From a plasmid, in sequence record NZ_CP020429.2: DNA of 64,000 nucleotides; one strand, given 5' to 3'. Below the pieces are notes generated by a model. The model was not told where the DNA came from, did not search any database, and saw nothing but the letters and a program-made list of their open reading frames with translations. Position 1 is the first letter of the stretch, and each line of letters begins with the position of its first letter. The position numbers and the translations under genes are program-made. Below are positions 6,206 through 49,826 of the stretch, in pieces.

Positions 6206-8743
6206 ATGTTTAAAGACTCAAATAACACGAAAGGACATGGCTCTATTCGTAAAAATAAAGTCTATGGAGCTGTAGGTGTACTTGCACTTGGAGCTGCAGC
6301 AATCGTTGGAGGAACTTCTCAAGCATCCGCAGATGAAGTAACTGAGGCTCCTGTAAATTCAGAACCAGTGGCGACCTCTCAAGCAAACGCAGACAGTCTG
6401 ATGTCACAAGCTACAGCTGTTGCGACTTCAGATGTCTCTACTCCAACAACCACAGCGACTGCAACAAACACTACTGATTCACAACCTACTGAAACAGTAG
6501 CAGAAGTAGCTACTACACAACCAGTAAGCACTAATGATAATAATGCTTACGCAGAAAAAGCTAATACATCAACGGAAGCTGAAAAAGTTGCTATCGACAA
6601 CTCAGCTGTCACGGATGCAGTTGCTACCGCTAAAGATAGTGGGGTTAAAGTGACACAAGATGCTACTCAAGATAAAGGGACACCAACTACAAGTGAAGAA
6701 CTCGCATCAAAGCAAGCTGAAATCAAGGCTGACCAAAATGAACAAGTAGCCTCAATCAAACAAGCTACCCAGGACGCATCTGGTCGCCAATCAGCTTATA
6801 ATGCAGCTGACAAAGCTCACGACACACTTGAAACTCAAGTGGATAAAGCAGTTAAAGATAGTAATGGCCTTATTAAAGCTGAGACTACTGAAATCTCAAG
6901 TGGGGATGGTAAAAATGTAGGTGATTACAACACCTATACTGAGCAGGTTAATAAGCAGATTGCTTCGAACAAAGAAACCATCGACAAATTTAACAAAGAT
7001 TATGCTGCTATGAAGGATAATGCTAACGTTAATGTTGACGGACGTGTAACAACACAAAATGTTGACCAGTTGACTTATGGTAACTCTGTTCAAAATGGTA
7101 ATGTTAATCCGGACGGCACCTTCTCATTCACGCATGATATGAATGACTCAGCCAATGATAGCTTGGGTGTTTTGGGTACAGGTACCCTTAATGGTAAGGT
7201 TAATTTCACGTCTGCAGCTAACGGAGATGGTTCGACAACCGTAACACTTAATAGTCTCGATTTGTGGAACTATGCCTACACAAGTAACCGTCCGAACACT
7301 GGTGTTAACCAAAATCTTAACTACCACGTTTATACTGATGGCGAAGAAATTTATTCAGTAAACCACGATGGTAACTCAAGCTTTGCGGAAGATATCAATC
7401 GTAGTATTGCACTTAACAAGTCCTATGTCTTGAAACCAGGCGAAACTACTGGTATTATCCCAATTCTTAACATCGATGATAATTGGATTATCAATACTCA
7501 TGGTCAGCTAAGTCTCGATTTCACTAATCCAAACACTGTTCCATCAACTACAGTTAAAAAGGTTAATGAACCTGTTAAACCAGAAATTCCATCAGCAAGT
7601 TATCATGACTACAGTATGAATTATCAACCAACTGTAACTAAGACTGTCCTCAACAGCGACGGTGAAAATGTTAATGGTAAGATGATTCCTAAAAATGATG
7701 AACATACCTATGTTTTGAATAACGGAAATATCTTTGCCAATGCAAAGGTTGGCGATACTGTGACAACTCGTGATCCACTTGAATTCGGTGAAGTTCCAAA
7801 TATCGAAGCCAACAAGGCTGAAAATGAGGCTAAAGGTTGGAACGTTGATTATGATGAGGCTTCTAAGACCTACACATTTACTGCCAAATACGATGGTAAA
7901 GCTCTCGAAGCACCTACAATCAAGTTCGTAGCAACGGACGATAACGGTTTCTACGATAATACTTATAAAGCTGACCGTAACGGTTACGAAACCTTCTCTG
8001 ATACTGTCACTAACAAGACGCCAACAGCTCCTAAACCACATAAGTCAGTTACTGATTCAAAAGGAAATGACATCGATGGAAAAACTACTGACGATGACAA
8101 AGTAACCTTCCATTTGACAACTGATTATAGTCCATACAAAGATATGGCTGCATCTAAGAAAGCACTTGAATTTGAGCTCCTTGATGACGTGCAAGATGGT
8201 GCTTATACAGTAGATGAAGACGCTATTACTATTCGCGATAGCAATAACAAAGATGTCAAAGACCTTTTTGATATGTATCACGTGCTTTCAGATGAAGGAC
8301 GTACTGATGCCATCAACAAGATCCTAGAAAAATCTGGTCTTAACCCAACTGGTGAATTCTATCTTTGGGTAGCCAAAAATCCAGTTGATTATTACCAAAA
8401 CTACATTCTTAAGAACAATAATGTAACAGTTAACCTCCCTGCTACATTGAAAGTCCCTGCAGGTACTACTGTAGAAAATGATTTCTATCAGATTGATTTT
8501 GGTAATGCCTATAAATCAAATCTTGTTTCATTTGATACACCACCAGCAGCACCAGTGGGAGAGTCTGGCGGACCTACTACCCCAGTAACTCCAGTAGAAG
8601 AAGTGCCTGTTCAACAACAAGCTATCAAAGTTCTTCCTAACACTGGTGAAAAATCAACTTCAGCGATTGCTGCAGTAGGTACAGTTGTTCTAACTACTGC
8701 ACTAGGTATGCTTGGTTTCTCAAAACGTAGTAAAGAATGCTAA
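6206..8743 (+). CDS. antigen I/II-family (SspB/Pac-like C-terminal domain) LPXTG adhesin with YSIRK-type signal peptide
   Basis: GHGSIRKNKVYGAVGV YSIRK-like signal; C-terminal LPNTGEKS plus TM and RSKEC tail; segments KSVTDSKGNDIDGKT and FYQIDFGNAYKSNLV resemble conserved AgI/II C-domain blocks (recalled from memory). Confidence 0.85.
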   Translation: MFKDSNNTKGHGSIRKNKVYGAVGVLALGAAAIVGGTSQASADEVTEAPVNSEPVATSQANADSLMSQATAVATSDVSTPTTTATATNTTDSQPTETVAEVATTQPVSTNDNNAYAEKANTSTEAEKVAIDNSAVTDAVATAKDSGVKVTQDATQDKGTPTTSEELASKQAEIKADQNEQVASIKQATQDASGRQSAYNAADKAHDTLETQVDKAVKDSNGLIKAETTEISSGDGKNVGDYNTYTEQVNKQIASNKETIDKFNKDYAAMKDNANVNVDGRVTTQNVDQLTYGNSVQNGNVNPDGTFSFTHDMNDSANDSLGVLGTGTLNGKVNFTSAANGDGSTTVTLNSLDLWNYAYTSNRPNTGVNQNLNYHVYTDGEEIYSVNHDGNSSFAEDINRSIALNKSYVLKPGETTGIIPILNIDDNWIINTHGQLSLDFTNPNTVPSTTVKKVNEPVKPEIPSASYHDYSMNYQPTVTKTVLNSDGENVNGKMIPKNDEHTYVLNNGNIFANAKVGDTVTTRDPLEFGEVPNIEANKAENEAKGWNVDYDEASKTYTFTAKYDGKALEAPTIKFVATDDNGFYDNTYKADRNGYETFSDTVTNKTPTAPKPHKSVTDSKGNDIDGKTTDDDKVTFHLTTDYSPYKDMAASKKALEFELLDDVQDGAYTVDEDAITIRDSNNKDVKDLFDMYHVLSDEGRTDAINKILEKSGLNPTGEFYLWVAKNPVDYYQNYILKNNNVTVNLPATLKVPAGTTVENDFYQIDFGNAYKSNLVSFDTPPAAPVGESGGPTTPVTPVEEVPVQQQAIKVLPNTGEKSTSAIAAVGTVVLTTALGMLGFSKRSKEC

Positions 8744-8798
8744 GATACCACCCACTTCTTAAAAAATCCTTTTCCCTATTCTAAATTCATAATTCCCT

Positions 8799-8830
8799 AA
8801 AAGCACAGCTCACAAGAGTTGTGCTTTTTT
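8799..8830 (+). terminator. intrinsic terminator
   Basis: AAAAGCACA...TGTGCTTTTTT hairpin with T-tract. Confidence 0.7.
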
Positions 8831-8991
8831 AAGAGGTGTCACTGGGTTACAAATAGATATTTGTTTTCCTATAATAAAGAAGTACTTTAAAACAAACTAG
8901 GAAGGAAGTTGTTGCTTATATGAGAACTGATAATTTATATAATTATGAACTTATGAAATCAAGATCATATAGGTAGAAAGAAGGTATCTAT

Positions 8992-9645
8992 TTGAAAAAT
9001 AATAAATTAATGTTCATGTTGCTGATGAAATGGTTTGCTGAAAGTATTTATTTCCTTGAAATCATATTTATAACAGCCACTTCAGTTCTGTTATTAGCAA
9101 ACAATATTCTCAATGTTTCAACAAAGACGATTCATATTATCGCCCTGGTATTACTGGTAGTTTATGTATGTATTGGTTTGTTATTAGCTAATCGAAAAAA
9201 TAAATTTACGATGTCAGTTAATTACTTTAAATTGATAGGAGCATTGGCATATATCGTACTTATCACCACTCTAAAAGGTATTGTGTTTGATATTTTGACA
9301 CACCCACTGGTTACCTTAGAGATTGCACTTCCATATTTTTTAGCTATTGGCTTACGAAATTTCAGTAAGAGCCAGATAACAAAAATCATTTTTGATGACC
9401 GTCATAACGCAAATATCAGAGGACGATTTGATTCTGTAGAAAATATAAAGGATTCTATGCGTTCATCTATAGCTAGTAGCATTACTCCTGAATTTAAAGG
9501 ACTTATGGAAATCAGAGATGAAAAATTTAGGCAAGACACAAAGGGTAATGTAGCTGGAATGTTCAAGGTCTTACTAAAATCCGGATTTCTTGGGTTTAAA
9601 CATATCCCATTGACTAAAGTAACACTGACATTTAACTTAGAATAA
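8992..9645 (+). CDS. hypothetical polytopic membrane protein
   Basis: TTG start with upstream GAAAGAAGG; several hydrophobic helices; alternative ATG at 9011. Confidence 0.45.
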   Translation: MKNNKLMFMLLMKWFAESIYFLEIIFITATSVLLLANNILNVSTKTIHIIALVLLVVYVCIGLLLANRKNKFTMSVNYFKLIGALAYIVLITTLKGIVFDILTHPLVTLEIALPYFLAIGLRNFSKSQITKIIFDDRHNANIRGRFDSVENIKDSMRSSIASSITPEFKGLMEIRDEKFRQDTKGNVAGMFKVLLKSGFLGFKHIPLTKVTLTFNLE

Positions 9646-40142: not shown

Positions 40143-40472
40143 TTATTTATCAAAATATGGAAAGACCCGTGATTGTAACTCTTTTAAGAGGAGAGCATAT
40201 TCTTCAAGCTGGCTAGGTGTATATTTCTTAATGACCCAATAATCACGTGAATATTTTTTGTCAGTAAAATCATTTCTCCAAATTTCTTTTAGACCATCTG
40301 GAGCTAAATCAATTGTAGTCGCACCTTGTCCAATCTTTTCAAGCGCTTCTTCCGTTGCTTCTTTTGTCCAAGTATCACGAACGTGATAACGCCAAGCAGT
40401 TTGACCACAATCCGAAAATATTGAGACTTGTAATTCTCCAACCTCTTTGAGTAGTTGTTCTTTTGTTGTCAT
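40143..40472 (-). CDS. hypothetical protein
   Basis: 109 aa; no motif. Confidence 0.5.
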   Translation of the reverse strand: MTTKEQLLKEVGELQVSIFSDCGQTAWRYHVRDTWTKEATEEALEKIGQGATTIDLAPDGLKEIWRNDFTDKKYSRDYWVIKKYTPSQLEEYALLLKELQSRVFPYFDK

Positions 40473-40619
40473 GGTAAATTACCTATAGGTTGAAAACCTG
40501 TCCTTTCTAAATATTTTATACTACTAGTATAAGGCTTTTGAATATAAAAAACTAACCAAATTGTTAATAATTTAAAATTAAAAAACCTTGTTTTGTAACG
40601 CTTTTTAGCATAAAATATA

Positions 40620-41423
40620 ATGAAAACTAACCAAATTGGAGACTTTATGGAACTTACATTTGATTTGAATAGAATAGTAAGCGGAGATATTAGGGTATTA
40701 GTTCCATCTGATTACTTGAAATTACATAACGACCCCACAAGAAAAAATTGGGAACTTTTTTTTAAGCCACATCAATTAGAAAAAGTGTTCCATTCATCTT
40801 TCTCTGTTACCTCATCGCAATTACGGAAATTTTTGAAGGATACATTTGGCATTCCATTTAAAGTGGAGGATACGGGAAATAATTCAAACCGAAATAGATT
40901 AAACGAAATGATAAAAGAAGTAGCTCCTACACATAGAGGAAAAACAACTACGTTAAATTTCTACCAATATCGAAAACTAATTCTATCTGATAAATTTAAC
41001 CGATTCATATTGAGTAAACACAATGAATGGGTAGTAGACGACCAAGTGAAAATGTACAATGAAATAATGTACCTACAAGTCAATAAATTCAAAGAATCAG
41101 CCTTATACCAAGAACAAAAAAAGAAAGACATTATATACTATGCCAATGCTTTATCCCTAATAGAGGGATTTGACCAAGTTCTAAAAGAATATTACTCTAT
41201 GTTCTTAGACCTATGTCATAATCAAGAAGTCTACTATGGAGACATCTACGCACCAGATGAAGTAAAACAAATGCTAGATATTATTTCTTATCGTTTTAGA
41301 CAAAAATCTCCATTAGTTTACAAGTTTGATTCTCATGATGATGTGTACAGTACAGATAAAAATAAGATTATTGAATGGTTTTTGCAAGATGTCGACAGAT
41401 GGGCAAATGATGAAATAAAATAG
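40620..41423 (+). CDS. hypothetical protein
   Basis: 267 aa; no motif. Confidence 0.5.
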   Translation: MKTNQIGDFMELTFDLNRIVSGDIRVLVPSDYLKLHNDPTRKNWELFFKPHQLEKVFHSSFSVTSSQLRKFLKDTFGIPFKVEDTGNNSNRNRLNEMIKEVAPTHRGKTTTLNFYQYRKLILSDKFNRFILSKHNEWVVDDQVKMYNEIMYLQVNKFKESALYQEQKKKDIIYYANALSLIEGFDQVLKEYYSMFLDLCHNQEVYYGDIYAPDEVKQMLDIISYRFRQKSPLVYKFDSHDDVYSTDKNKIIEWFLQDVDRWANDEIK

Positions 41424-41485
41424 GCGATACTGATCGCCTATTTTTCTTATTAAAAATTGTAGTCATCCTCAAACTTATACTAAAG

Positions 41486-41509
41486 TATAGCAAAAAACAC
41501 CCTATTTTC
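41486..41509. repeat. 24-bp direct repeat TATAGCAAAAAACACCCTATTTTC, copy 1 (3' flank of the TIR-NTPase gene)
   Basis: Identical to 44241-44264. Confidence 0.6.
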
Positions 41510-41665
41510 TAGTTTACCAGATTTCAACAGGAAAGTTTTCTTGTGTCTCATTTTATGGGTGCAGTGCCATGAATCTAAGAGATTTTTTTATACCATTTAT
41601 AGCTATTTTGCTATCCAACCTATGGCATCGATAGGTGGATTCAAAAATTTTTAACTTGTTATATA

Positions 41666-44206
41666 TTATCTGTTTTCTATTGATTTTATGTGTTGTTCTC
41701 GTTTAAGGAGTGAATTAGGTTTAAACCCAAATCTTTTTTCTATTCTAGCTTTTTCTTGATAGCTAAAGGAATGCCGTGATACATGATTAACAACCATTAA
41801 ATTCAATATGGTACGAGCTACGTGTGACATATTTTTATTATTTCTATCATTTAAGATAGATTTTTCCGAGAATTGTTTTTCATATTGTAGTTCTAATCCC
41901 CTTTTTATTAATATATAGCTAGGATTAATATTGCTATTTTCCACCATTTCTGAAAAATAATAAGAAATAGGTTCTGAACCAATTGATGAAACAGTTTTCA
42001 TAATTAGTGAATATATAGTAGCAAAATTCATACTCACAAGTATGTCATGAATATCTTTTCTTAGTTTATCCTCATTTAGGTTTTCTGTATCAACTTCTTT
42101 TGAAATAAAGTTCTCTAGAAAAAGTATAAAATCTTTATCGGAGACAATCTGAATAAAAGAGTTAAGAAGTCTTAAATTAGCATCAACTGTATTTTTTAGT
42201 ATTTTATTAAATTCTTTGTTTTTTATTGACCCGTATCTGTTCTTAAGAATTACTCCAATTACTTCTACAGTTTGAATTGCATTTCTAACTTGATTTTGTC
42301 TATGAGCTTGTTTTTTTTCAATTATCTCTGAGTTATCTCTTTCTGAGTATGTATTTTCCTCTAATCTGTCTCGATGCTTCAATTCGGATTTTCGTTTTTC
42401 GTCGAAGTTCTCTATCCTGTAATCAATATTATTAGATAAGTCATTAACTTGTTTATCAAAATCACCCAACTCTACAGAATCAAGTGTTGCTTCTGTATAA
42501 TCACTAAATGTATTCTCTAAGCTAGAGTTTAACATTTCTATTAATCGTTGATCTTTACAATGATGCGCTAGAAAAATACTTATGTGGCCATTCTGTTCTA
42601 AGTCCAGATTCAAAATAATGTCTTTTATGTCATCAAGATGTTCATTAAAGTTATCAGATAGATATTGCCCTAAAAAGTAATAATATAGATACTCATAGCA
42701 AAAACTATAGTTAGAAGAGTTGCTTTTTTTCAACAATCCAGTTTTCATTAGTAAACTTAGATACTCTTCTAGGTCAAAGATTTTATAATCATTTTGATAA
42801 TCTTCTAAAAATAAATTGAATTCCTTATTTGATACTTCTAAGACTTCTTTTTTAAAAAGATACATAGAAAAATAAGACAAAAAGTTTATATAAGACACAA
42901 TCCGATCATTACTTACTCCACAATTTTGAAAAGCTAACTGAATTAGTAAATTATAACAATGACCGTGTGAAGATATAGGAGTATCAAATCTATTGTTAAC
43001 ATCAATTGAAGAACCTAGGATAATTAAAATATACAGAGGAAATGCGGGGATAATACCATTCTTATATCCTCTATCTAAACCCAAACTGATATCAATAAGA
43101 TTTGAATTCTCATCAATTTTCTTTAATTTATCATTTGTGTTTAAATCCCTATAGAGTGATTTTGATTCTATAAACTTTGTTATAAGCTCATTTCTTAAAG
43201 AAGGTTTGAAAGGTTGTATTGTGAATCTTGTTACTGTGAAGTCATTCGAACTAATATCATAAATATCATCAACAAACATAATTAATCCTGCGTACTTGTC
43301 AATTTTTTTAACAGTATTTTGTAATTTTGTCGAAAGTTTATGAAAATCATCAATTATAACAACTATATTTTCTGCTTTATTTTTATGGATAGTTTTATAT
43401 GTTGAAATATATTTGTTGCGAACTGCCTTTTCTATATTTTGAGAATTAATCTCTTTACTTTCTAAATAGATAGGTTGAAAACCGTCACTATATATATCTA
43501 AAAATAATTTTTTTGCAAAAGATGTTTTTCCACTTTGTCTATCGCCTACTATAAAAAATTTATCTAAATAATATTTACTATTCAGTAACTTTTCTGCTGA
43601 AAGATAACTTATATTTTCTTTTCTATCTATTCTTAGTTCTGGATAAGTATACAAATCTGAAAGCTTTAATGTGGAATTAAGAACATTAGAAATTAAACCA
43701 ATCGAATCAAGTTGCGAATGAACTTCTTCTTTTAATTTATCTTGAGGCCAGAGCTCTTCTTTTGAGAGCTTTTCAGATAATCTTATAAAAAGAGAATTTA
43801 ATTGTTCGGATGAATCAAACGACATTTCCTCAAATTCTTTACAGAAAGATTCGTAAGGTAATGTACCAAATTTGTAAGGCAAATCATCTGTTGAGATTTT
43901 GATAGGTATTACTTTATCTAAGAATTTATGTTCTGTTATTTCTTTTATTTCGAAACTCACACCCGAATCGTCTATTTCAGATTTTTCTAAATACGCCTTG
44001 TCACAAATAGATAAAATAACATCGCAATTTCTAATATTTTCAATCATGAATTGATTTAAAGTATTTTTGTTAACAGTATTATCATCATAAATAACTTCTA
44101 AATTTTTTTCTTCTAGTTCGAGCTCAAGTTTACGTATAAAGTCTAATTGTCTCTGACTATAATTCTCATCATCTGACCAGGCATGTGCAATAAAAATTTT
44201 ACTCAT
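41666..44206 (-). CDS. TIR-like domain / P-loop NTPase (STAND-like) protein with a long helical C-terminal region; candidate antiphage NLR-like protein
   Basis: N-terminus KIFIAHAWSDDENYSQRQLDFIRKLE...CDVILSICDKAYLEKS fits the TIR/DUF1863 fold; Walker A GDRQSGKTS; Walker B IVVIIDDFH; about 500-aa C-terminal helical region. Confidence 0.8.
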   Translation of the reverse strand: MSKIFIAHAWSDDENYSQRQLDFIRKLELELEEKNLEVIYDDNTVNKNTLNQFMIENIRNCDVILSICDKAYLEKSEIDDSGVSFEIKEITEHKFLDKVIPIKISTDDLPYKFGTLPYESFCKEFEEMSFDSSEQLNSLFIRLSEKLSKEELWPQDKLKEEVHSQLDSIGLISNVLNSTLKLSDLYTYPELRIDRKENISYLSAEKLLNSKYYLDKFFIVGDRQSGKTSFAKKLFLDIYSDGFQPIYLESKEINSQNIEKAVRNKYISTYKTIHKNKAENIVVIIDDFHKLSTKLQNTVKKIDKYAGLIMFVDDIYDISSNDFTVTRFTIQPFKPSLRNELITKFIESKSLYRDLNTNDKLKKIDENSNLIDISLGLDRGYKNGIIPAFPLYILIILGSSIDVNNRFDTPISSHGHCYNLLIQLAFQNCGVSNDRIVSYINFLSYFSMYLFKKEVLEVSNKEFNLFLEDYQNDYKIFDLEEYLSLLMKTGLLKKSNSSNYSFCYEYLYYYFLGQYLSDNFNEHLDDIKDIILNLDLEQNGHISIFLAHHCKDQRLIEMLNSSLENTFSDYTEATLDSVELGDFDKQVNDLSNNIDYRIENFDEKRKSELKHRDRLEENTYSERDNSEIIEKKQAHRQNQVRNAIQTVEVIGVILKNRYGSIKNKEFNKILKNTVDANLRLLNSFIQIVSDKDFILFLENFISKEVDTENLNEDKLRKDIHDILVSMNFATIYSLIMKTVSSIGSEPISYYFSEMVENSNINPSYILIKRGLELQYEKQFSEKSILNDRNNKNMSHVARTILNLMVVNHVSRHSFSYQEKARIEKRFGFKPNSLLKREQHIKSIENR

Positions 44207-44240
44207 TTCATTCCCCTTTTGATAAAGTTCTTTATTTTAT

Positions 44241-44264
44241 TATAGCAAAAAACACCCTATTTTC
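44241..44264. repeat. 24-bp direct repeat, copy 2 (inside the terminator of the helicase gene)
   Basis: Forms part of the AAACACC...GGTGTTTT hairpin 3' of 44314-45723. Confidence 0.6.
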
Positions 44265-44313
44265 ATAAGGTGTTTTCATGCTGCAAAAGTGATATAACAA
44301 TACCCTTCGCATT

Positions 44314-45723
44314 TTAAACAAAGTCAAATAGTGAAATTTCTTCGTAAACTTCTACTTCTTCTACCTCATTAACAGAGGTTTCAGAAACTATTTCCGTAGC
44401 AACATTGTCATTATGTTCTTCAGTCATTCCAAAGAGTTCAGAAATACTTTCTAGGAAGTCATCAGCCATATCAAGAACTTCTTGTGAAACAACAACATGA
44501 GTCGTTTCTTCAACGGTTTCTTGTGCAACTACTTCTTCGTCCTCGAAGGCAGCTTCTGCTTCATCTACTGACTCATCGATAACTTCAACAAGTTCGCTTT
44601 CTTCATCAGGATCATAGCTAGCACTATATTCCTCAGTGATTGAGCTAACTTTTACATCAGAGTCTTCATCCATTTCTGGATGGTCTGCCTTATACTGCAA
44701 TTCAAAAGCATTAATAGCCTCTTCAATTTGTTCTACAGTAGGCTTTTTAGACTCATCTTCGACTTCGATAAGAGGATTAACAATGGCACGTTTAGCTGAT
44801 ACATAGTCAAGACGAGCTTGGTCTGCAAAAACATCTGCAGCTTCTCCTCGCTTAATAGTATCTGCACAACGGTCAATGTTTTCCTGCAAAAGTTTGGCTT
44901 GTTTATCCATACCATCAATAACATTGTTGATACGCTGGATAGTCCCAATACCACTCGCAAAATCTAGACGAACAGCATAGCTATTTTGACCGATAATATG
45001 TAAATCAAGCATGCGTTCTGGTTGCCAAGCTGATTTTTGTTCCAACGCACGAAGGACAAAACCACGATAATGAGCAAGGGTTGTCATTTTCATATGGAGT
45101 GGATCAGAGGCAACATTCATCTGCATAGCATAGTTCAGTTGATTTCCAGCAACATCTTTCTTAGTTGCTTCGTATCCATCTGGTTCAAATGTCATAACAA
45201 ATGGGTTATGTTCGACCTCATATTTCTTACCATCTTCTTTTTCAACCACTTCTTTCCAAGGTCTTGTCTTTTCCGCAAGCTCTTTATCCTGGACTAATAG
45301 AGAAAGTTTCTTCTCGTAATTTTCCTTATCTTTAAGGGCTTGCTTAATACGTTTTTGAGACAAAGCAATATCACGTTTCCAAGCCTTACGACGATTAGAC
45401 AACAACTCAAATTCGTTATCAAGTTCCATCTTAAGTTTAAGATATGGATTGCCTGTTGCAATGGCTTTAAATTCAGAGGCTGAGAGTGTTTGCTCATCAA
45501 TATCCTCTGAAGCTCGCATCGGTGTACGACTGGTCATGATTTGCGTAATATAACGGAGCTTTGTTTCTTGAATCTGCCAAAGGTAGTTATCAAAACTTCC
45601 CTTGGTGATATAGTGGAAAATATTTACCTTTCGATAGATATTTCCTTGACGAACCAAGCGTCCATTACGTTGGATAATATCAGACGGTTTCCAAGGCACA
45701 TCGAGATGATGAACAGCTTTCAT
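44314..45723 (-). CDS. C-terminal fragment of the MTase-SNF2 helicase gene (helicase motif VI plus an acidic tail), separated by a frameshift
   Basis: Begins VPWKPSDIIQRNGRLVRQGN, which is helicase motif VI; reading across the junction with one extra G restores STEKGGTGLNVQRRMKAVHH, motif V. Confidence 0.8.
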   Translation of the reverse strand: MKAVHHLDVPWKPSDIIQRNGRLVRQGNIYRKVNIFHYITKGSFDNYLWQIQETKLRYITQIMTSRTPMRASEDIDEQTLSASEFKAIATGNPYLKLKMELDNEFELLSNRRKAWKRDIALSQKRIKQALKDKENYEKKLSLLVQDKELAEKTRPWKEVVEKEDGKKYEVEHNPFVMTFEPDGYEATKKDVAGNQLNYAMQMNVASDPLHMKMTTLAHYRGFVLRALEQKSAWQPERMLDLHIIGQNSYAVRLDFASGIGTIQRINNVIDGMDKQAKLLQENIDRCADTIKRGEAADVFADQARLDYVSAKRAIVNPLIEVEDESKKPTVEQIEEAINAFELQYKADHPEMDEDSDVKVSSITEEYSASYDPDEESELVEVIDESVDEAEAAFEDEEVVAQETVEETTHVVVSQEVLDMADDFLESISELFGMTEEHNDNVATEIVSETSVNEVEEVEVYEEISLFDFV

Positions 45724-48700
45724 ACGACGTTGTACGTTAAGACCGGTTCCCCTTTTTCCGTTGAAGCCATGAGAATACGAATCTCACCAGCATTCATTTG
45801 ACGTTGAAGTTGGAGCTTAGCCTTTTTGTTAGCAGCATCGTGAATAAAAGCAATCTCTTCTTCTGGAATTCCTCGTTCAACAAGCAAATCTTTCAACTCT
45901 TGATAAACAGAGAAACCCTTGCCATTAGGAGTTCCAAGGTCAGAGAAAATCATTTGTGTCCCTTTATGCTTAGCCTCCATGTGATAAATCTTATCCACTC
46001 TCTCAACCACTTGCATGAGTTTATCTGCATCAGCTCTTACATAGAACTCCGCATCCAGCAAACGCATGTCTAAAGCCAACTTTCTGGCTTCACTAGTGAT
46101 TTTGAGCATGTTATCTTCACTAGGATCTACACTCCCATTTTTAACTCGATCTGAGCGTTCTACAAGCTCATCCAAATAAACCTTTTGGTTATCCGTCAAC
46201 TGACTTTCAACCGCTACCTTTTCTACCATAGGAACTGGAAGATTAAGGTCTTCAGTCATTTGAATATCTGCGGTCTGACGATAAATCGCCATCAGCTCAG
46301 GGAGATTCATAAATTTAGCAAAGCGTTTACGTGAAATATACTTGTCTCCAGTAGGGTTAAGTTCAAGACTATTCTCAACAATCCCAAACGCACCAACCCA
46401 AGCATCAAAGAAACTTACACCGAAGTGTTCCATGACATCTGGTTGAAGATAATTCATCATCGTATACATTTCGCTAATAGAGTTGGAAACTGGTGTTCCA
46501 GTCGCAAAGACAACGTGACGTGTATCATGCTCTTCTTGAAGCACGCGCACCTTCATTTCCATATCCATATTCTTTTTTGAGGTACGGTTGGTAATACCAG
46601 CAACGTTCCCCAAACGTGTCATAGGACGGACATTCTTGTACCCGTGGGCTTCATCAACAAAGAGCATATCAATACCAAGGCTTTCAAAGTTGATAAACTC
46701 ATCAATACCAGTCTTATTTTCAAGCAACGTTTCTAAGTTTGCCTCAAGACTTCTACGCATCGATTGTGCTTGCTTAAAAGTAATTTTGTCGTCATTAGCT
46801 TTTGCGTAACCAATGATCTCATCAAGCTCATCAATCTTTTCAGAAATAAAGGCTTGTTCACGTTCTTGTGAGACACGAACTTTCTCAAATTGAGAATGTC
46901 CAATCACAATTCCATCATAGTCGCTGGTTAGAATACGAGAAACGAACAAGCGACGTCGTGACTTTTCAAAATCCTGCTCAGTCGTAACAAACACTTTCTT
47001 GGTAGGGTAGAAACGCATAATTTCTTGACCAAATTGTGCTGTTAGACTAGACGGAACCACAAACAATGGTTTATGAATAAGCCCAAGCTCTTTCATCTTG
47101 AAAGCTGCTGAAATCATGGTTAGTGTCTTACCAGTACCCACTTCGTGAGCGAGGAGTGCACGTCTCTCTTCAAGAATACGTTGTACCGCATTTTTTTGGT
47201 GAGGGCGAAGCTCTACTCCTTTAGCCAAGCCATCAAATTCCAAGAGACTTCCATCATATTGACGTGTCACATAGCGATTAAAGACTTCATTGTAGGTATC
47301 TTCAATCACTTCTTGGACTGTTGGGTTTTCATGAATAAAGTTCTTAAAGCTTTCTTGTAGAACACGCTCACACTCACGTAGGTTTGCTGTAGCCACTTCA
47401 TCAACCTTACGTATCGGGTTTTCAGTCGTACCAAAGTTACGCATGATTGTTGGTTGATTACTTGTAAGCAAGTGAGCAACAATATCTGTTGCGTGTGAGT
47501 AGCTTTTATTGTACTCATCACGTAGACCTAAACGAAGGTTAGATTGACGACTCATATAGCAGTTTAACAAGCGTTCGTTGAAACCTCGTCCGATTCTGGA
47601 TGTCACTAATAGTGATTTAGCTTCTTCAGAATGCAGACCAACTTTTTCATCCAACAATTCACTAAACACCCATTGAGAAACGACGTTACTAGGAATCCAG
47701 CTAGAACCAATGCTGAAATCAATATCAGATAAGACAACTGGTTCTGGTACAACAGATAAAATCAATTCCAAATAACGTTCCCAATCCGCTTGTGTATCTC
47801 CGTCTTCAATGAGAGAGTTAATACAATCACGTTTGGCTAGAACATCACCTGAAAGGAATTTATCCTTAGTAACATAGTGTACAGTCTTATCATCAATATA
47901 GCGTTCCACATCAATCATTACTGTCTCACCTAGTTCTGAAATCATCATATCTTCTGAAACATCTGGATAGACAGAACTCATGAGGTTCAAATCAACGCCA
48001 CGACCTTCCGAAAGCGACACATTCAAGGCTTCTACTGCTGACATCACTTGATGAAGGTGTTTTTTAGGACGAATGGTTGGCTTTTTAAAAGCATCTGACT
48101 TCACAAAGACTACCTTTGAGCTGTCATTCTCGTCCAACTCCTCTAACTCAAGACTAGCGATAAGAGGATAACGATCATCTCGGTCAAAGAGGCGAGCATT
48201 CACCGCTTGATTGATATAACCATACTTCTTCTTGAAAGTATCGTAGGCTTGATTAAGTGTTGCAAGCAGTTGTTTGAATTTCCCTTCATCATAGTCTGTC
48301 GTCATTTGAATATCAATAATGGCTTGATACGCATTTTTGATAGCAACCATGCCACGGATACGCTTGTTTTCTGTATCCGTAAGGGGTGTTTCATAGAAAT
48401 AAATACCTTTGTAAAGCCCTTTACTTTTAGCTGCTTTAGAAGGTGTTTGACTTACCCATGTATTCGTAACAATATTAGGGTCTGCTTCTACTGCTGCTTC
48501 AAAGTCTAAAATGGCTTCTTCTTTGTATTTATCATCATATTTTACGAACTGTCCTTGTTCGTCTTGATAAAAAATCATCTCAGCTGCTCGTGAGCTAGGA
48601 CGGATAGACGTGTTATCACGATAATAGACATGCCCATTTTTATCACAAGCATACTCGTTCAATCGAATATCAAGTGAAGCAAGTAAGTCTTGGTCAAGAT

Positions 48701-49826
48701 GATTCACTTCTTCTTTAAGGATAATATCACGAGGTTCTAGTCTCTCCACTTCGAAAGGCACTGTTACTTTTGATAGTGCTTCTTGAAGCTCTGAAGCTAA
48801 GTCAAAGGAGCTATCTACCACAAGATCCAGTGTTCCACCATTGAAATGACGTACCTGATAATCACCTAGAACACAAGGATTTTTACAAATAGCATCCTGG
48901 AAGAAATAGGGATTGAGTGAGACACGTTTATCAAAGGGGAGTTTATTTCTATCTGAAGACCAGAAGTCGATATTAGTATCGGGAACAGGGATAAAAGCTC
49001 CTTTTTGGAAAAAGAGGATATCTGTTACCACTCGTGTTCCAGCATCTTTAAAAGCAGTATTTGGTAAGCGGACACCACCTAAAAACTGAGTTCCACTACG
49101 ACGGAGTTCTGGCAGAATTGAACCAGCACTCTTATCTGCAGTACCAGTTGAAGTGATAGCTGCAACCATCCCATGATAGGGTACCAAATCGATAGCTTTC
49201 TTAAAGAAGTAATCATGAATACGATAAGGTTTATTATCATAAGCCTTATCGACAATGCGAACATCCGCAAACGGAACATTCGTAATGACCAAGTCAAATG
49301 GTGTCCCTTCAAAGTTTACTGTTTCAAATCCTTGGACTAAAACAGTAGCATCTTGATGAAGGTGTTTAGCAATAGCACCTGTAACGGTATCAAGTTCAAT
49401 TCCATAAAGAGTAGAATTCTTCTTGATATCCTCTGGCATTGTTTCAAAGAAGATACCAGTACCCATTGATGGATCAAGAATATTACCTCCTTTAAAACCA
49501 CTTTCTACAATCTTATCCCACATTGCAGTAGCAATCTCTGGACTTGTGTAGTAAGCCGTTAAGGAGCTCATTTCCATCGCACGATATTCTTCTTTAGTGA
49601 CAAGACTTTTTAGCTCATCACGTTCTTTTGCAAAACGATTAATCTTACTATCAAAGAAATCGTTAGCAAGTCCTCCCCAACCAACATAGTTAGAGAGAAT
49701 TTCTTGTTCGGCACTGTCAGCTAGACGGTTATCTGATTCTAGTGCTTTCACAAGTTTAATGGCAGAAAGGTTAGCTTGAACCTTTTCTGCTTTAGTCATT
49801 GTTTTATTTTGTTTTTGTTCTTCCAT
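45720..49826 (-). CDS. N6-adenine DNA methyltransferase fused to an SNF2-family helicase (N-terminal 1368 aa of a roughly 1830-aa protein); frameshifted
   Basis: MTase motif I ILDPSMGTGIFF; motif IV ITNVPFADV; helicase motif I LAHEVGTGKTLT; DEAH box MLFVDEAHGYKN; SNF2 motif III ATGTPVSNS. Confidence 0.85.
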   Translation of the reverse strand: MEEQKQNKTMTKAEKVQANLSAIKLVKALESDNRLADSAEQEILSNYVGWGGLANDFFDSKINRFAKERDELKSLVTKEEYRAMEMSSLTAYYTSPEIATAMWDKIVESGFKGGNILDPSMGTGIFFETMPEDIKKNSTLYGIELDTVTGAIAKHLHQDATVLVQGFETVNFEGTPFDLVITNVPFADVRIVDKAYDNKPYRIHDYFFKKAIDLVPYHGMVAAITSTGTADKSAGSILPELRRSGTQFLGGVRLPNTAFKDAGTRVVTDILFFQKGAFIPVPDTNIDFWSSDRNKLPFDKRVSLNPYFFQDAICKNPCVLGDYQVRHFNGGTLDLVVDSSFDLASELQEALSKVTVPFEVERLEPRDIILKEEVNHLDQDLLASLDIRLNEYACDKNGHVYYRDNTSIRPSSRAAEMIFYQDEQGQFVKYDDKYKEEAILDFEAAVEADPNIVTNTWVSQTPSKAAKSKGLYKGIYFYETPLTDTENKRIRGMVAIKNAYQAIIDIQMTTDYDEGKFKQLLATLNQAYDTFKKKYGYINQAVNARLFDRDDRYPLIASLELEELDENDSSKVVFVKSDAFKKPTIRPKKHLHQVMSAVEALNVSLSEGRGVDLNLMSSVYPDVSEDMMISELGETVMIDVERYIDDKTVHYVTKDKFLSGDVLAKRDCINSLIEDGDTQADWERYLELILSVVPEPVVLSDIDFSIGSSWIPSNVVSQWVFSELLDEKVGLHSEEAKSLLVTSRIGRGFNERLLNCYMSRQSNLRLGLRDEYNKSYSHATDIVAHLLTSNQPTIMRNFGTTENPIRKVDEVATANLRECERVLQESFKNFIHENPTVQEVIEDTYNEVFNRYVTRQYDGSLLEFDGLAKGVELRPHQKNAVQRILEERRALLAHEVGTGKTLTMISAAFKMKELGLIHKPLFVVPSSLTAQFGQEIMRFYPTKKVFVTTEQDFEKSRRRLFVSRILTSDYDGIVIGHSQFEKVRVSQEREQAFISEKIDELDEIIGYAKANDDKITFKQAQSMRRSLEANLETLLENKTGIDEFINFESLGIDMLFVDEAHGYKNVRPMTRLGNVAGITNRTSKKNMDMEMKVRVLQEEHDTRHVVFATGTPVSNSISEMYTMMNYLQPDVMEHFGVSFFDAWVGAFGIVENSLELNPTGDKYISRKRFAKFMNLPELMAIYRQTADIQMTEDLNLPVPMVEKVAVESQLTDNQKVYLDELVERSDRVKNGSVDPSEDNMLKITSEARKLALDMRLLDAEFYVRADADKLMQVVERVDKIYHMEAKHKGTQMIFSDLGTPNGKGFSVYQELKDLLVERGIPEEEIAFIHDAANKKAKLQLQRQMNAGEIRILMASTEKGEPVLTYNVV

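Follow-up and report, generated by a model that had tools for sequence, protein, structure and literature searches.

The plasmid record NZ_CP020429.2 contains, within the 64,000-nt stretch analysed here (the window), a minus-strand gene for an 846-amino-acid (aa) protein at positions 41666-44206 that is bracketed by two exact copies of a 24-bp sequence. The explanation that accounts best for our data, and that we regard as probable as a whole, is that this protein is a single-gene antiphage sensor resembling the nucleotide-binding leucine-rich repeat (NLR) proteins and that its gene was captured from a chromosome by two microhomology joins. Gene and product, a SEFIR/TIR-like domain followed by a signal transduction ATPase with numerous domains (STAND) NTPase and a helical sensor, were assigned from the open reading frame (ORF) list and translation of the window, Pfam, PADLOC, NCBIfam and an exact sequence look-up. 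The translation contains KIFIAHAWSDD, DVILSICDKAYLEKS, GDRQSGKTS and IVVIIDDFH and is identical to WP_080610178.1 / ARC21719.1, which NCBI names 'TIR domain-containing protein' or 'NACHT domain-containing protein'. An earlier interpretation made from the letters alone (the sequence-only reading) had pointed to this gene, to the quoted motifs and to the two exact 24-bp copies, and all of these are indeed present. Judged from sequence comparison, the protein is an effector-swapped relative of a known defence type that is already annotated publicly.

The N-terminal domain (codons 1-150, 43757-44206, minus strand) belongs to the TIR superfamily and is of the SEFIR type, as judged by Pfam, phmmer, a domain model with Foldseek, and conservation. 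Pfam TIR_2 matches residues 16-126 with 35.9 bits (cutoff 28, E = 1.2e-8). A phmmer search against the PDB gave the Bacillus cereus SEFIR structure 5Y8E/5Y8F as sole match (E = 2e-6, residues 3-111). When the domain was modelled separately (residues 1-160, predicted local distance difference test (pLDDT) 89), Foldseek again ranked 5Y8E/5Y8F best with TM-scores of 0.63-0.67, followed by the NADase TIRs of SPARTA (TIR-APAZ), TIR-STING, ThsB and SARM1 and also by RPS4. The TIR_2 match above cutoff and the Foldseek results for the model thus assign the domain a flavodoxin-like fold of the TIR superfamily, and both sequence and predicted fold place it closest to the prokaryotic SEFIR domain. The TIR/DUF1863-like fold of the sequence-only reading is therefore right as far as TIR likeness goes, with SEFIR as the nearest kin. 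Among the homologues F5, D41, Y72 and P101 are invariant and E86 is kept in at least 90%; in the alignments, the invariant D41 falls on the Asp of the SEFIR 'ILD' motif and E86 on the Glu of GVGTE in B. cereus SEFIR.

A P-loop STAND NTPase had also been predicted, and this assignment holds. The NTPase core (codons ~215-345, 43172-43564, minus strand) is supported by partial Pfam matches to AAA_14, AAA and nSTAND3, by invariant residues and by an NLR-type fold. Walker A is GDRQSGKT at residues 221-228 and Walker B is IVVIIDDFH at residues 280-288; among 30 sequences G221, G226, K227 and D286 are invariant and D287 is nearly so. The winged-helix part of the NOD module (codons 457-512, 42671-42838, minus strand) carries the signature of Pfam nSTAND_NTPase4 (PF24406; residues 457-512, 41.8 bits, cutoff 27, E = 1.1e-10); a literature search on nSTAND4 returned nothing relevant. 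With the full-length AlphaFold2 model (pLDDT 83, pTM 0.74), Foldseek retrieved NOD2, NLRC4, NAIP5, RPP1, NLRP3 and EfAvs5 (E = 1e-7 to 1e-4, probability 1.00), while the global TM-scores against NLRs are low (0.2-0.36), as expected for multidomain proteins. According to the model, the NTPase is a NACHT-like STAND module with an NLR-type fold. The predicted secondary structure also bears out the proposed helical C-terminal region, which is all-helical over codons ~520-846 (41669-42649, minus strand) and is the presumed sensor.

Comparison with defence databases places this architecture next to validated systems. The best match in PADLOC is PDC-S60 (E = 5.4e-42, residues 158-831 against positions 192-891 of 906), followed by bSEFIR (E = 6.6e-9, 34 bits, residues 3-363 only), and NCBIfam NF053861 DS8_antiphage aligns with E = 3.7e-117 over residues 157-827 to model positions 309-993 of 994. 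Since residues 157-827 align to the DS8_antiphage model, the NTPase and the entire C-terminal region are homologous to DS-8; the PDC-S60 and DS8_antiphage alignments span the C-terminal region out to residues 827-831. The assignment to the Avs/bNACHT type made earlier has to be given up in favour of PDC-S60, bSEFIR and DS8_antiphage, as no PADLOC Avs or bNACHT hidden Markov model and no Pfam NACHT or NB-ARC model matches the 846-aa protein (E <= 0.01). An exhaustive homologue search gave about 2000 clusters at 50% identity, most of which aligned only from about residue 175 on. Relatives occur in Streptococcus mitis, S. suis, S. mutans, S. anginosus, S. parasanguinis and Lactococcus. Distant homologues keep NTPase and sensor and have the N-terminal effector swapped, metallophosphatase or caspase-like N-termini being among the variants, and in sequence terms this looks like the modular pattern typical of STAND defence proteins.

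NLR-like STAND proteins such as DS-8 and Avs oligomerise once their sensor binds a phage component. Given this behaviour and the NAD+ depletion by SEFIR systems, we propose a chain from sensing over assembly to NAD+ hydrolysis. The helical C-terminal region would sense a phage component, the NTPase module would drive ATP-dependent oligomerisation, and the clustered SEFIR/TIR domains would hydrolyse NAD+ and lead to abortive infection. For SEFIR-domain single-gene systems, phage protection and NAD+ depletion via the N-terminal domain have been described (Millman et al., 2022; PMC12322248). It is quite unlikely that the protein is no immune NADase and acts as a signalling or scaffolding STAND ATPase with a SEFIR-like domain for contacts only, or as a plasmid addiction or exclusion factor. 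Eukaryotic SEFIR domains are adaptors, the bacterial SEFIR domain was at first proposed as a general interaction domain, and the catalytic assignment of E86 is uncertain, all of which would suit such roles. However, SEFIR-domain defence proteins do protect from phage and deplete NAD+, NTPase and sensor are homologous to the validated DS-8, and relatives carry other toxic effectors (metallophosphatase, caspase-like) at the same position. The genomic surroundings also speak for defence: in S. thoraltensis the chromosomal gene is accompanied by genes for a DNA methylase and a Cas3-like helicase, and abortive infection (Abi) genes occupy the same slot in sister plasmids.

The second part of our proposal, the capture of the gene, rests on the structure of the 24-bp repeat and of its flanks. 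Exactly two copies of the 24-mer TATAGCAAAAAACACCCTATTTTC are present in the window (41486-41509 and 44241-44264, each on the plus strand); allowing up to 3 mismatches adds no further copy, and 100 shuffles gave no match. The bases flanking both copies differ on each side, hence the repeat is exactly 24 bp long. Between the copies G+C is 27%, compared with 39-40% in the adjoining gene for an N6-methylase/SNF2-helicase fusion, in the following the helicase gene. The sequence-only reading had placed one copy 3' of the upstream helicase gene, and a copy does lie there; since gene and helicase gene are on the minus strand, this 'upstream' copy has the higher coordinates of the two. This copy, R1 (44241-44264), was correctly seen to lie inside the helicase terminator. 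On the gene strand it reads GAAAATAGGGTGTTTTTTGCTATA; the terminator contributes its loop, 3' arm and T-tract, and most of an extended -10 box is included as well. With R1 the intrinsic-terminator hairpin behind the stop codon of the helicase gene is complete (44244-44282, minus strand), and by RNA folding it has a 13-bp core stem and a GAAA loop at -20.1 kcal/mol (z = -4.06). A consensus scan further detected a promoter-like site for the captured gene at 44239-44266 (minus strand; ATGAAA, 16 nt, TG-n-TATAAT), which reads ATGAAA-16 nt-TGCTATAAT and has 10 of 12 consensus matches plus the extended TG, a consensus match only. Its -35 box, spacer and TGCTATA derive from R1, its final AT from the chromosomal insert. 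The far copy, R2 (41486-41509), represents the terminator/promoter's original 3' half; it lacks a 5' arm, and CTTTA, the flank typical of the plasmid, still adjoins it (41481-41485). An Rfam scan of 41300-44450 gave sub-threshold sraA-like matches only, on the neighbouring terminator.

Many related megaplasmid contigs without the cassette, retrieved from metagenomes by means of the repeat core, make the origin of the repeat understandable. In these contigs the terminator reads GAAAAC(A/G)CCCTATGAAAATAGGGTGTTTTTTGCTATACTTTAAGG on the gene strand and is present in a single copy; a ribosome-binding site and another gene follow directly after it, and CTTTA follows the repeat as it does at R2. The single copy means that the 24-mer is made up of loop, 3' arm, T-tract and TG-n-TATA of a conserved terminator and promoter, and it agrees with the expectation that cassette-free relatives have one repeat copy behind the helicase gene. 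The idea that the gene was inserted between helicase gene and terminator is correct in that it was inserted beside the terminator, but a complete hairpin still follows the helicase gene, and only terminator loop and 3' half are duplicated to the far side of the insert. As far as the sequence allows us to say, the repeat is both an ordinary conserved part of a terminator/promoter and an insertion scar, with no transposase footprint or att core, so that the scar proposed by the sequence-only reading stands and its opposition to an ordinary terminator does not. Of 19 cassette-bearing contigs, 18 have R1 and R2 2755 bp apart. The plasmid with the cassette is common: in the assembly collection, 171 blocks index the exact protein and 133 a near-identical variant, and all cassette contigs that were read (the 23-24 longest per look-up) show this plasmid context.

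The long-term home of the gene appears to be a streptococcal chromosome. On chromosomal contigs, the nearest non-plasmid relatives (96% and 87% aa identity) have valS on one side and a LiaR-type two-component/ABC operon on the other. Homologues at 51-76% lie directly after valS in S. cristatus and S. thoraltensis, and a 97%-DNA-identical allele has the same position in S. mitis; it is this repeated location 3' of valS that points to the chromosome. In BLAST, the cassette shares 97.4% DNA identity with the best chromosomal locus (L005) over 44255-41569 only, and the identity thus extends 15 nt into R1. On the plasmid, the chromosomal segment includes the 5' leader with the ribosome-binding site (44207-44240, minus strand, ATAAAATAAAGAAC...AAAGGGGAATGAA, by identity to L005) and 3' untranslated DNA (41569-41665, minus strand) that ends in the loop of the chromosomal terminator with AAAAATCTCTTAGATTCA, as defined by the BLAST end and the alignment to L005 and L011. 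At the upstream junction, the chromosome side reads ...ACTGTGTTTTTTGATATAATAAAATAAAG on the gene strand, which is the 3' end of the valS terminator plus an extended -10 box, and the plasmid side reads ...ATAGGGTGTTTTTTGCTATAATAAAATAAAG. The join, at the microhomology GTGTTTTTTGnTATA, lies within GTGTTTTTTG(C/A)TATA and inside a 15-nt stretch with 14 of 15 positions identical.

The downstream junction involves a third partner. Here chromosomal identity stops in the loop of the gene's own terminator, between AAAAATCTCTTAGAT and CCATTTCTAAGAGATTTTT. The following 59 nt (41510-41568, minus strand, TGGCACTGCACCCATAAAATGAGACAC...GGTAAACTA) are the first nucleotides of the left end of an IS3-family insertion sequence (IS), here called IS-X, as found by matching them to complete copies in S. 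oralis, S. australis and S. pseudopneumoniae. They differ from IS-X at 2 positions (CTT in the window, CAC in IS-X) in an arm of an internal hairpin. In full IS-X the sequence continues with ...GGTAAACTAGAAACAGGAGTGTTTTGTTATGG, in the plasmid with ...GGTAAACTAGAAAATAGGGTGTTTTTTGCTATAC. This places the return to plasmid DNA in GAAA, which forms the loop of two hairpins, the plasmid terminator and a terminator-like one within IS-X.

With these junctions at hand, it is extremely unlikely that the two 24-mers are independent instances of a common conserved terminator, one per gene, that carry no insertion signal. The sequence is conserved in the plasmid family and is found 3' of at least one other gene as well (loci L040, L048, L073), and R2 forms with the IS-derived arm a weak chimeric hairpin (-15.4 kcal/mol, z = -1.8), both in keeping with such independence. 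Yet R2 lacks a 5' arm of its own, the chromosomal gene copies use another terminator (AAAAATCTCTTAGAT...TCTAAGAGATTTTT) that is cut in its loop in the plasmid, the identity of R1 and R2 ends abruptly after 24 nt on both sides, and cassette-free megaplasmid contigs have one copy.

Microhomology-mediated template switching or illegitimate recombination can leave a duplication that flanks an insert. We propose that a 2.7-kb chromosomal piece was copied in this way into the terminator/promoter behind the helicase gene of a Streptococcus salivarius megaplasmid. It would have carried the gene with its promoter-proximal leader, then the 5' arm and the loop of the gene's terminator and, within that loop, the first 59 nt of the IS3-family element. 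The first join, from plasmid to chromosome, would have occurred in the T-tract and extended -10 box common to both partners, the second, from IS element back to plasmid, in the GAAA loops. As the re-entry point is 24 nt upstream of the exit point, these 24 nt now border the insert at either end. The simplest route would be template switching in the course of replication or repair, and the upstream copy would keep the helicase terminator intact while it rebuilds a promoter for the captured gene.

A different route to the same structure is rather unlikely, namely that a circle which already contained one 24-mer inserted by homologous recombination at the plasmid's copy. Integration of the plasmid beside the gene, by one crossover in the 15-nt microhomology, would be followed by recombination between IS-hairpin loop and terminator loop (GAAA with GAAA), which would release a 2755-bp circle with repeat and cassette, and insertion of this circle into a naive plasmid would give exactly the observed structure. 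This route needs three rare events compared with two, however, the contigs examined show neither a circle junction nor a cointegrate, and 24 bp is at the lower limit for RecA-type homologous recombination.

Direct repeats around an insert are a classic sign of mobile elements, and a dedicated mobile-element enzyme (transposase, integrase or integron-like recombinase) that left the repeat as a target-site duplication or att-type core, with the gene as mobile cassette, has to be considered as well. IS3-family elements do target the same sequence, with 17 other metagenome contigs having an IS in the terminator loop, and one plasmid (L018/L028) has a complete IS in each repeat copy, similar to a composite transposon. 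We regard this origin as very unlikely. The 24 bp far exceed the 3-bp duplications of the local IS elements; each L018 IS has its own 3-bp duplication (TTT, TCA) and they are hence later, independent insertions; both junctions lie in microhomologies of plasmid and donor, with chromosomal identity reaching 15 nt into the repeat; and the IS fragment meets the repeat with its interior (nt 59), not with its tip. No transposase or recombinase gene is found in 41486-44264 or in the neighbouring ORFs tested (ORF list, Pfam). The same 24-mer was not seen around different cassettes either: other megaplasmid contigs have a single site with unrelated cargo and no second copy.

Several points weigh against capture of a defence gene by two microhomology joins. 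The donor order valS-gene-IS-X, in which the gene's terminator loop with IS-X would read TCTCTTAGAT[CT]CATGGCACTGCACCC, occurs in no sampled chromosome. IS-X itself is absent from every chromosomal locus fetched, and the seven genome loci in which it was found all have other flanks. The exact empty site (pSt0-like flank, single 24-mer and terminator arm), which would read ACTAAAGTATAGCAAAAAACACCCTATTTTCATAAGG with the window plasmid's own flank, had 0 matches in the metagenome collection, where the search retrieved only empty-like sites with other downstream cargo. As neither donor nor exact empty site was found, order and mechanism of the two joins cannot be fixed. On the protein side, the match to DS8_antiphage reaches 392 bits and so falls short of the model's equivalog cutoff (790), which we attribute to the different effector. 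Pfam SEFIR has no match to the 846-aa protein at E <= 0.01, so that the SEFIR-versus-TIR label depends on the PDB comparisons. MAFFT sets the canonical TIR 'C..E' glutamate of distant TIR_2 homologues opposite D80, not E86, and the sequence alignments leave E86 an uncertain candidate for the catalytic residue. Defence, NADase activity and trigger are all deduced from homology.

The element that received the gene had been called plasmid-like, and it is a member of the S. salivarius megaplasmid family, in which relatives such as pSAL813, pIKMIN-B501 and the ATCC 25975 plasmid share 95-97% identity with it across the helicase gene. The helicase gene (44314-49826, minus strand, by Pfam) belongs to the backbone and adjoins PcfJ, AcrIIA9 and type IV secretion system genes. 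In the window it is split into 1368 and 469 aa, while most relatives have a single ORF of 1836-1838 aa; an alignment with a 1-nt gap traces the split to a missing G in a G5 run near 45749 (within 45745-45755). Either the gene is truly a pseudogene or a phase variant here, or the homopolymer was misread in sequencing. The sister plasmids match the window only up to 44265 or 44314, at the repeat or shortly ahead of it, and different cargo lies beyond: AbiGI/AbiGII in pIKMIN-B501, an IS, a GtrA gene and an Abi-family gene in the ATCC 25975 plasmid, and a DUF4238 gene in pSAL813. Since the cargo differs from plasmid to plasmid, the region beyond the helicase terminator is a variable slot, often with abortive-infection genes. 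A defence-island setting, as suggested earlier, is therefore supported by the Abi genes of the sister plasmids but not by the methylase-SNF2 gene, which is backbone and not shown as defence. Cassette-free contigs (L038-L082, e.g. L038, L041, L045, L064, L078) open the slot with a gene for a highly variable multi-pass membrane protein of 350-640 aa, whose N-terminus has a conserved YPQY(S/L)L motif and whose C-terminus diverges. Neither this protein nor the other alternative slot genes gave anything significant in Pfam and PADLOC; it may be an uncharacterised defence or exclusion gene.

The terminator loop itself attracts IS elements. A second IS3-family element, related to IS-X (orfA 178 aa, orfB 279 aa), sits in the helicase terminator loop of the ATCC 25975 plasmid and, in both orientations, of the 17 metagenome contigs mentioned above (among L038-L082). 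The insertions, among them the one at L002 4590-5941, are at the same 2-3 nt directly after CCCTATTTT. L057 and L066 have a short derivative in which the two inverted-repeat ends are joined directly. In L018/L028 (GCA_977063585.1) the element is in both repeat copies (L018 6946-8297 and 11120-12471), and the pair brackets the defence gene like a composite transposon, each copy with its own 3-bp duplication. Arrival of the gene as a composite transposon was rejected for this reason, each IS lying with its duplication inside an otherwise intact repeat copy, and the arrangement arose by two later insertions. Repeated insertion makes the loop an insertion hot spot, and IS-X has probably inserted likewise into the terminator loop in the donor. 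It is doubtful, though conceivable, that the methylase-SNF2 terminator/promoter is a general docking point for gene capture. Through its resemblance to other terminator-promoter junctions and to the terminator-like left-end hairpin of terminator-seeking IS3-family elements, it could repeatedly recruit chromosomal defence genes by microhomology-driven template switching, and IS elements would supply one of the homologies. If true, conjugative plasmids would have a recombinase-free route to sample the defence genes of neighbouring species.

Some further observations concern the surroundings of the cassette and its alleles. R2 is abutted by a module (40463-41474, plus strand) that sequence comparison found to be ~82% identical to the small S. 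thermophilus plasmids pSt0 and CP049054, and its edge is a second recombination junction at most 12 nt from the repeat. The module contains a 267-aa ORF (40620-41423, plus strand) with its own terminator (41417-41444) and no significant Pfam, NCBIfam or PADLOC family, the one marginal PADLOC match being Csm2 (E = 0.007). Further away, a 2053-aa YSIRK/LPXTG surface protein with FctA-type domains (31965-38126, minus strand) is built of tandem units of ~672 bp, its length varies from 1157 to 2053 aa between plasmids, and 66-aa plus-strand ORFs lie within its region at 33900, 34572 and 35244. Directly past the stop codon of the 846-aa gene, in the 3' untranslated region (41600-41650, minus strand), lies the hairpin-like sequence CCACCTATCGATGCCATAGGTTGG, which is also kept, with sequence changes, in chromosomal loci. 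In the alignment of the window protein with two chromosomal alleles, P0002 and P0007, the alleles are mosaics: P0002 is almost identical to the window protein from about residue 215 on and strongly divergent in the effector domain, and P0007 has an effector domain of the P0002 type and a different C-terminal part. The alignment suggests recombination between alleles at the valS locus. The best DNA match of all (99.6%), NZ_CP020430.1 (L001; Streptococcus sp. FDAARGOS_192 plasmid unnamed2, 20.5 kb), has the repeat and a truncated 5' gene part in an inverted duplicate (6995-9042); it looks like a palindromic assembly artefact and was not used.

The current view of NLR-like defence is left unchanged by these data, and the reconstructed capture is neat, not unexpected. 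Still, the junctions document with unusual completeness how a defence gene from a chromosome may reach a plasmid without a dedicated recombinase, in a terminator loop that IS3-family elements target repeatedly. One allele is widespread in human oral and gut metagenomes on the S. salivarius megaplasmid, a plasmid type of probiotic strains, which matters for the phage sensitivity of such strains and for the spread of immune genes from one species to another. With its SEFIR/TIR effector, the protein is a further version within the DS-8 sensor family, a family that thereby turns out to be common in oral streptococci and lactococci.

With respect to known systems, the two joins resemble microhomology template switching or illegitimate recombination, with short homologies (14 of 15 nt, and 4 nt) at hairpins and duplication of the overlap; the mechanism is read from the product only, and insertion of a circle by homology gives the same sequence. 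The protein itself shares features with several defence families. DS-8 (DefensePredictor system 8) is a metallophosphatase-NACHT protein for which phage protection was shown in E. coli, and its defence requires phosphatase residues and the NACHT ATPase residue. Both proteins are single-gene systems with homologous NTPase and C-terminal regions, but the effector of DS-8 is a metallophosphatase and that of the window protein is SEFIR/TIR-like; the DS8_antiphage alignment begins after the model's metallophosphatase and Pfam finds no PF00149 domain. DS-8 was also validated in E. coli, whereas the host of the window protein is a Gram-positive coccus. bSEFIR (Millman et al., 2022) is likewise a single gene with an N-terminal SEFIR-type domain followed by an ATPase. 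Millman et al. (2022) required an N-terminal SEFIR match stronger than the TIR match (by HHsearch); for the domain of the window protein the PDB comparisons favour SEFIR and Pfam gives TIR_2. The bSEFIR match is weak and restricted to the first 363 residues, so full-length similarity to the validated family is not seen in PADLOC, and the rest of the protein goes with PDC-S60 and DS-8. A tie to the SEFIR system of S. thermophilus (PMC12322248) was not confirmed, the homologue clusters having no S. thermophilus member. PDC-S60, a candidate in PADLOC's set of known and candidate defence systems for which no experimental test came to light, although no search aimed at one was made, has an NTPase-sensor part like that of the window protein, its own N-terminal part being unmatched. 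With a PF24406 score above the gathering threshold the window protein falls into the nSTAND_NTPase4 clade. In contrast to Avs and the NLRs, the sensor is helical with no recognisable tetratricopeptide or leucine-rich repeats in the Pfam scan. Avs/AVAST, bNACHT and the NLRs of animals and plants nevertheless follow the same logic as the window protein, with an effector coupled by a NOD-type NTPase to a sensor.

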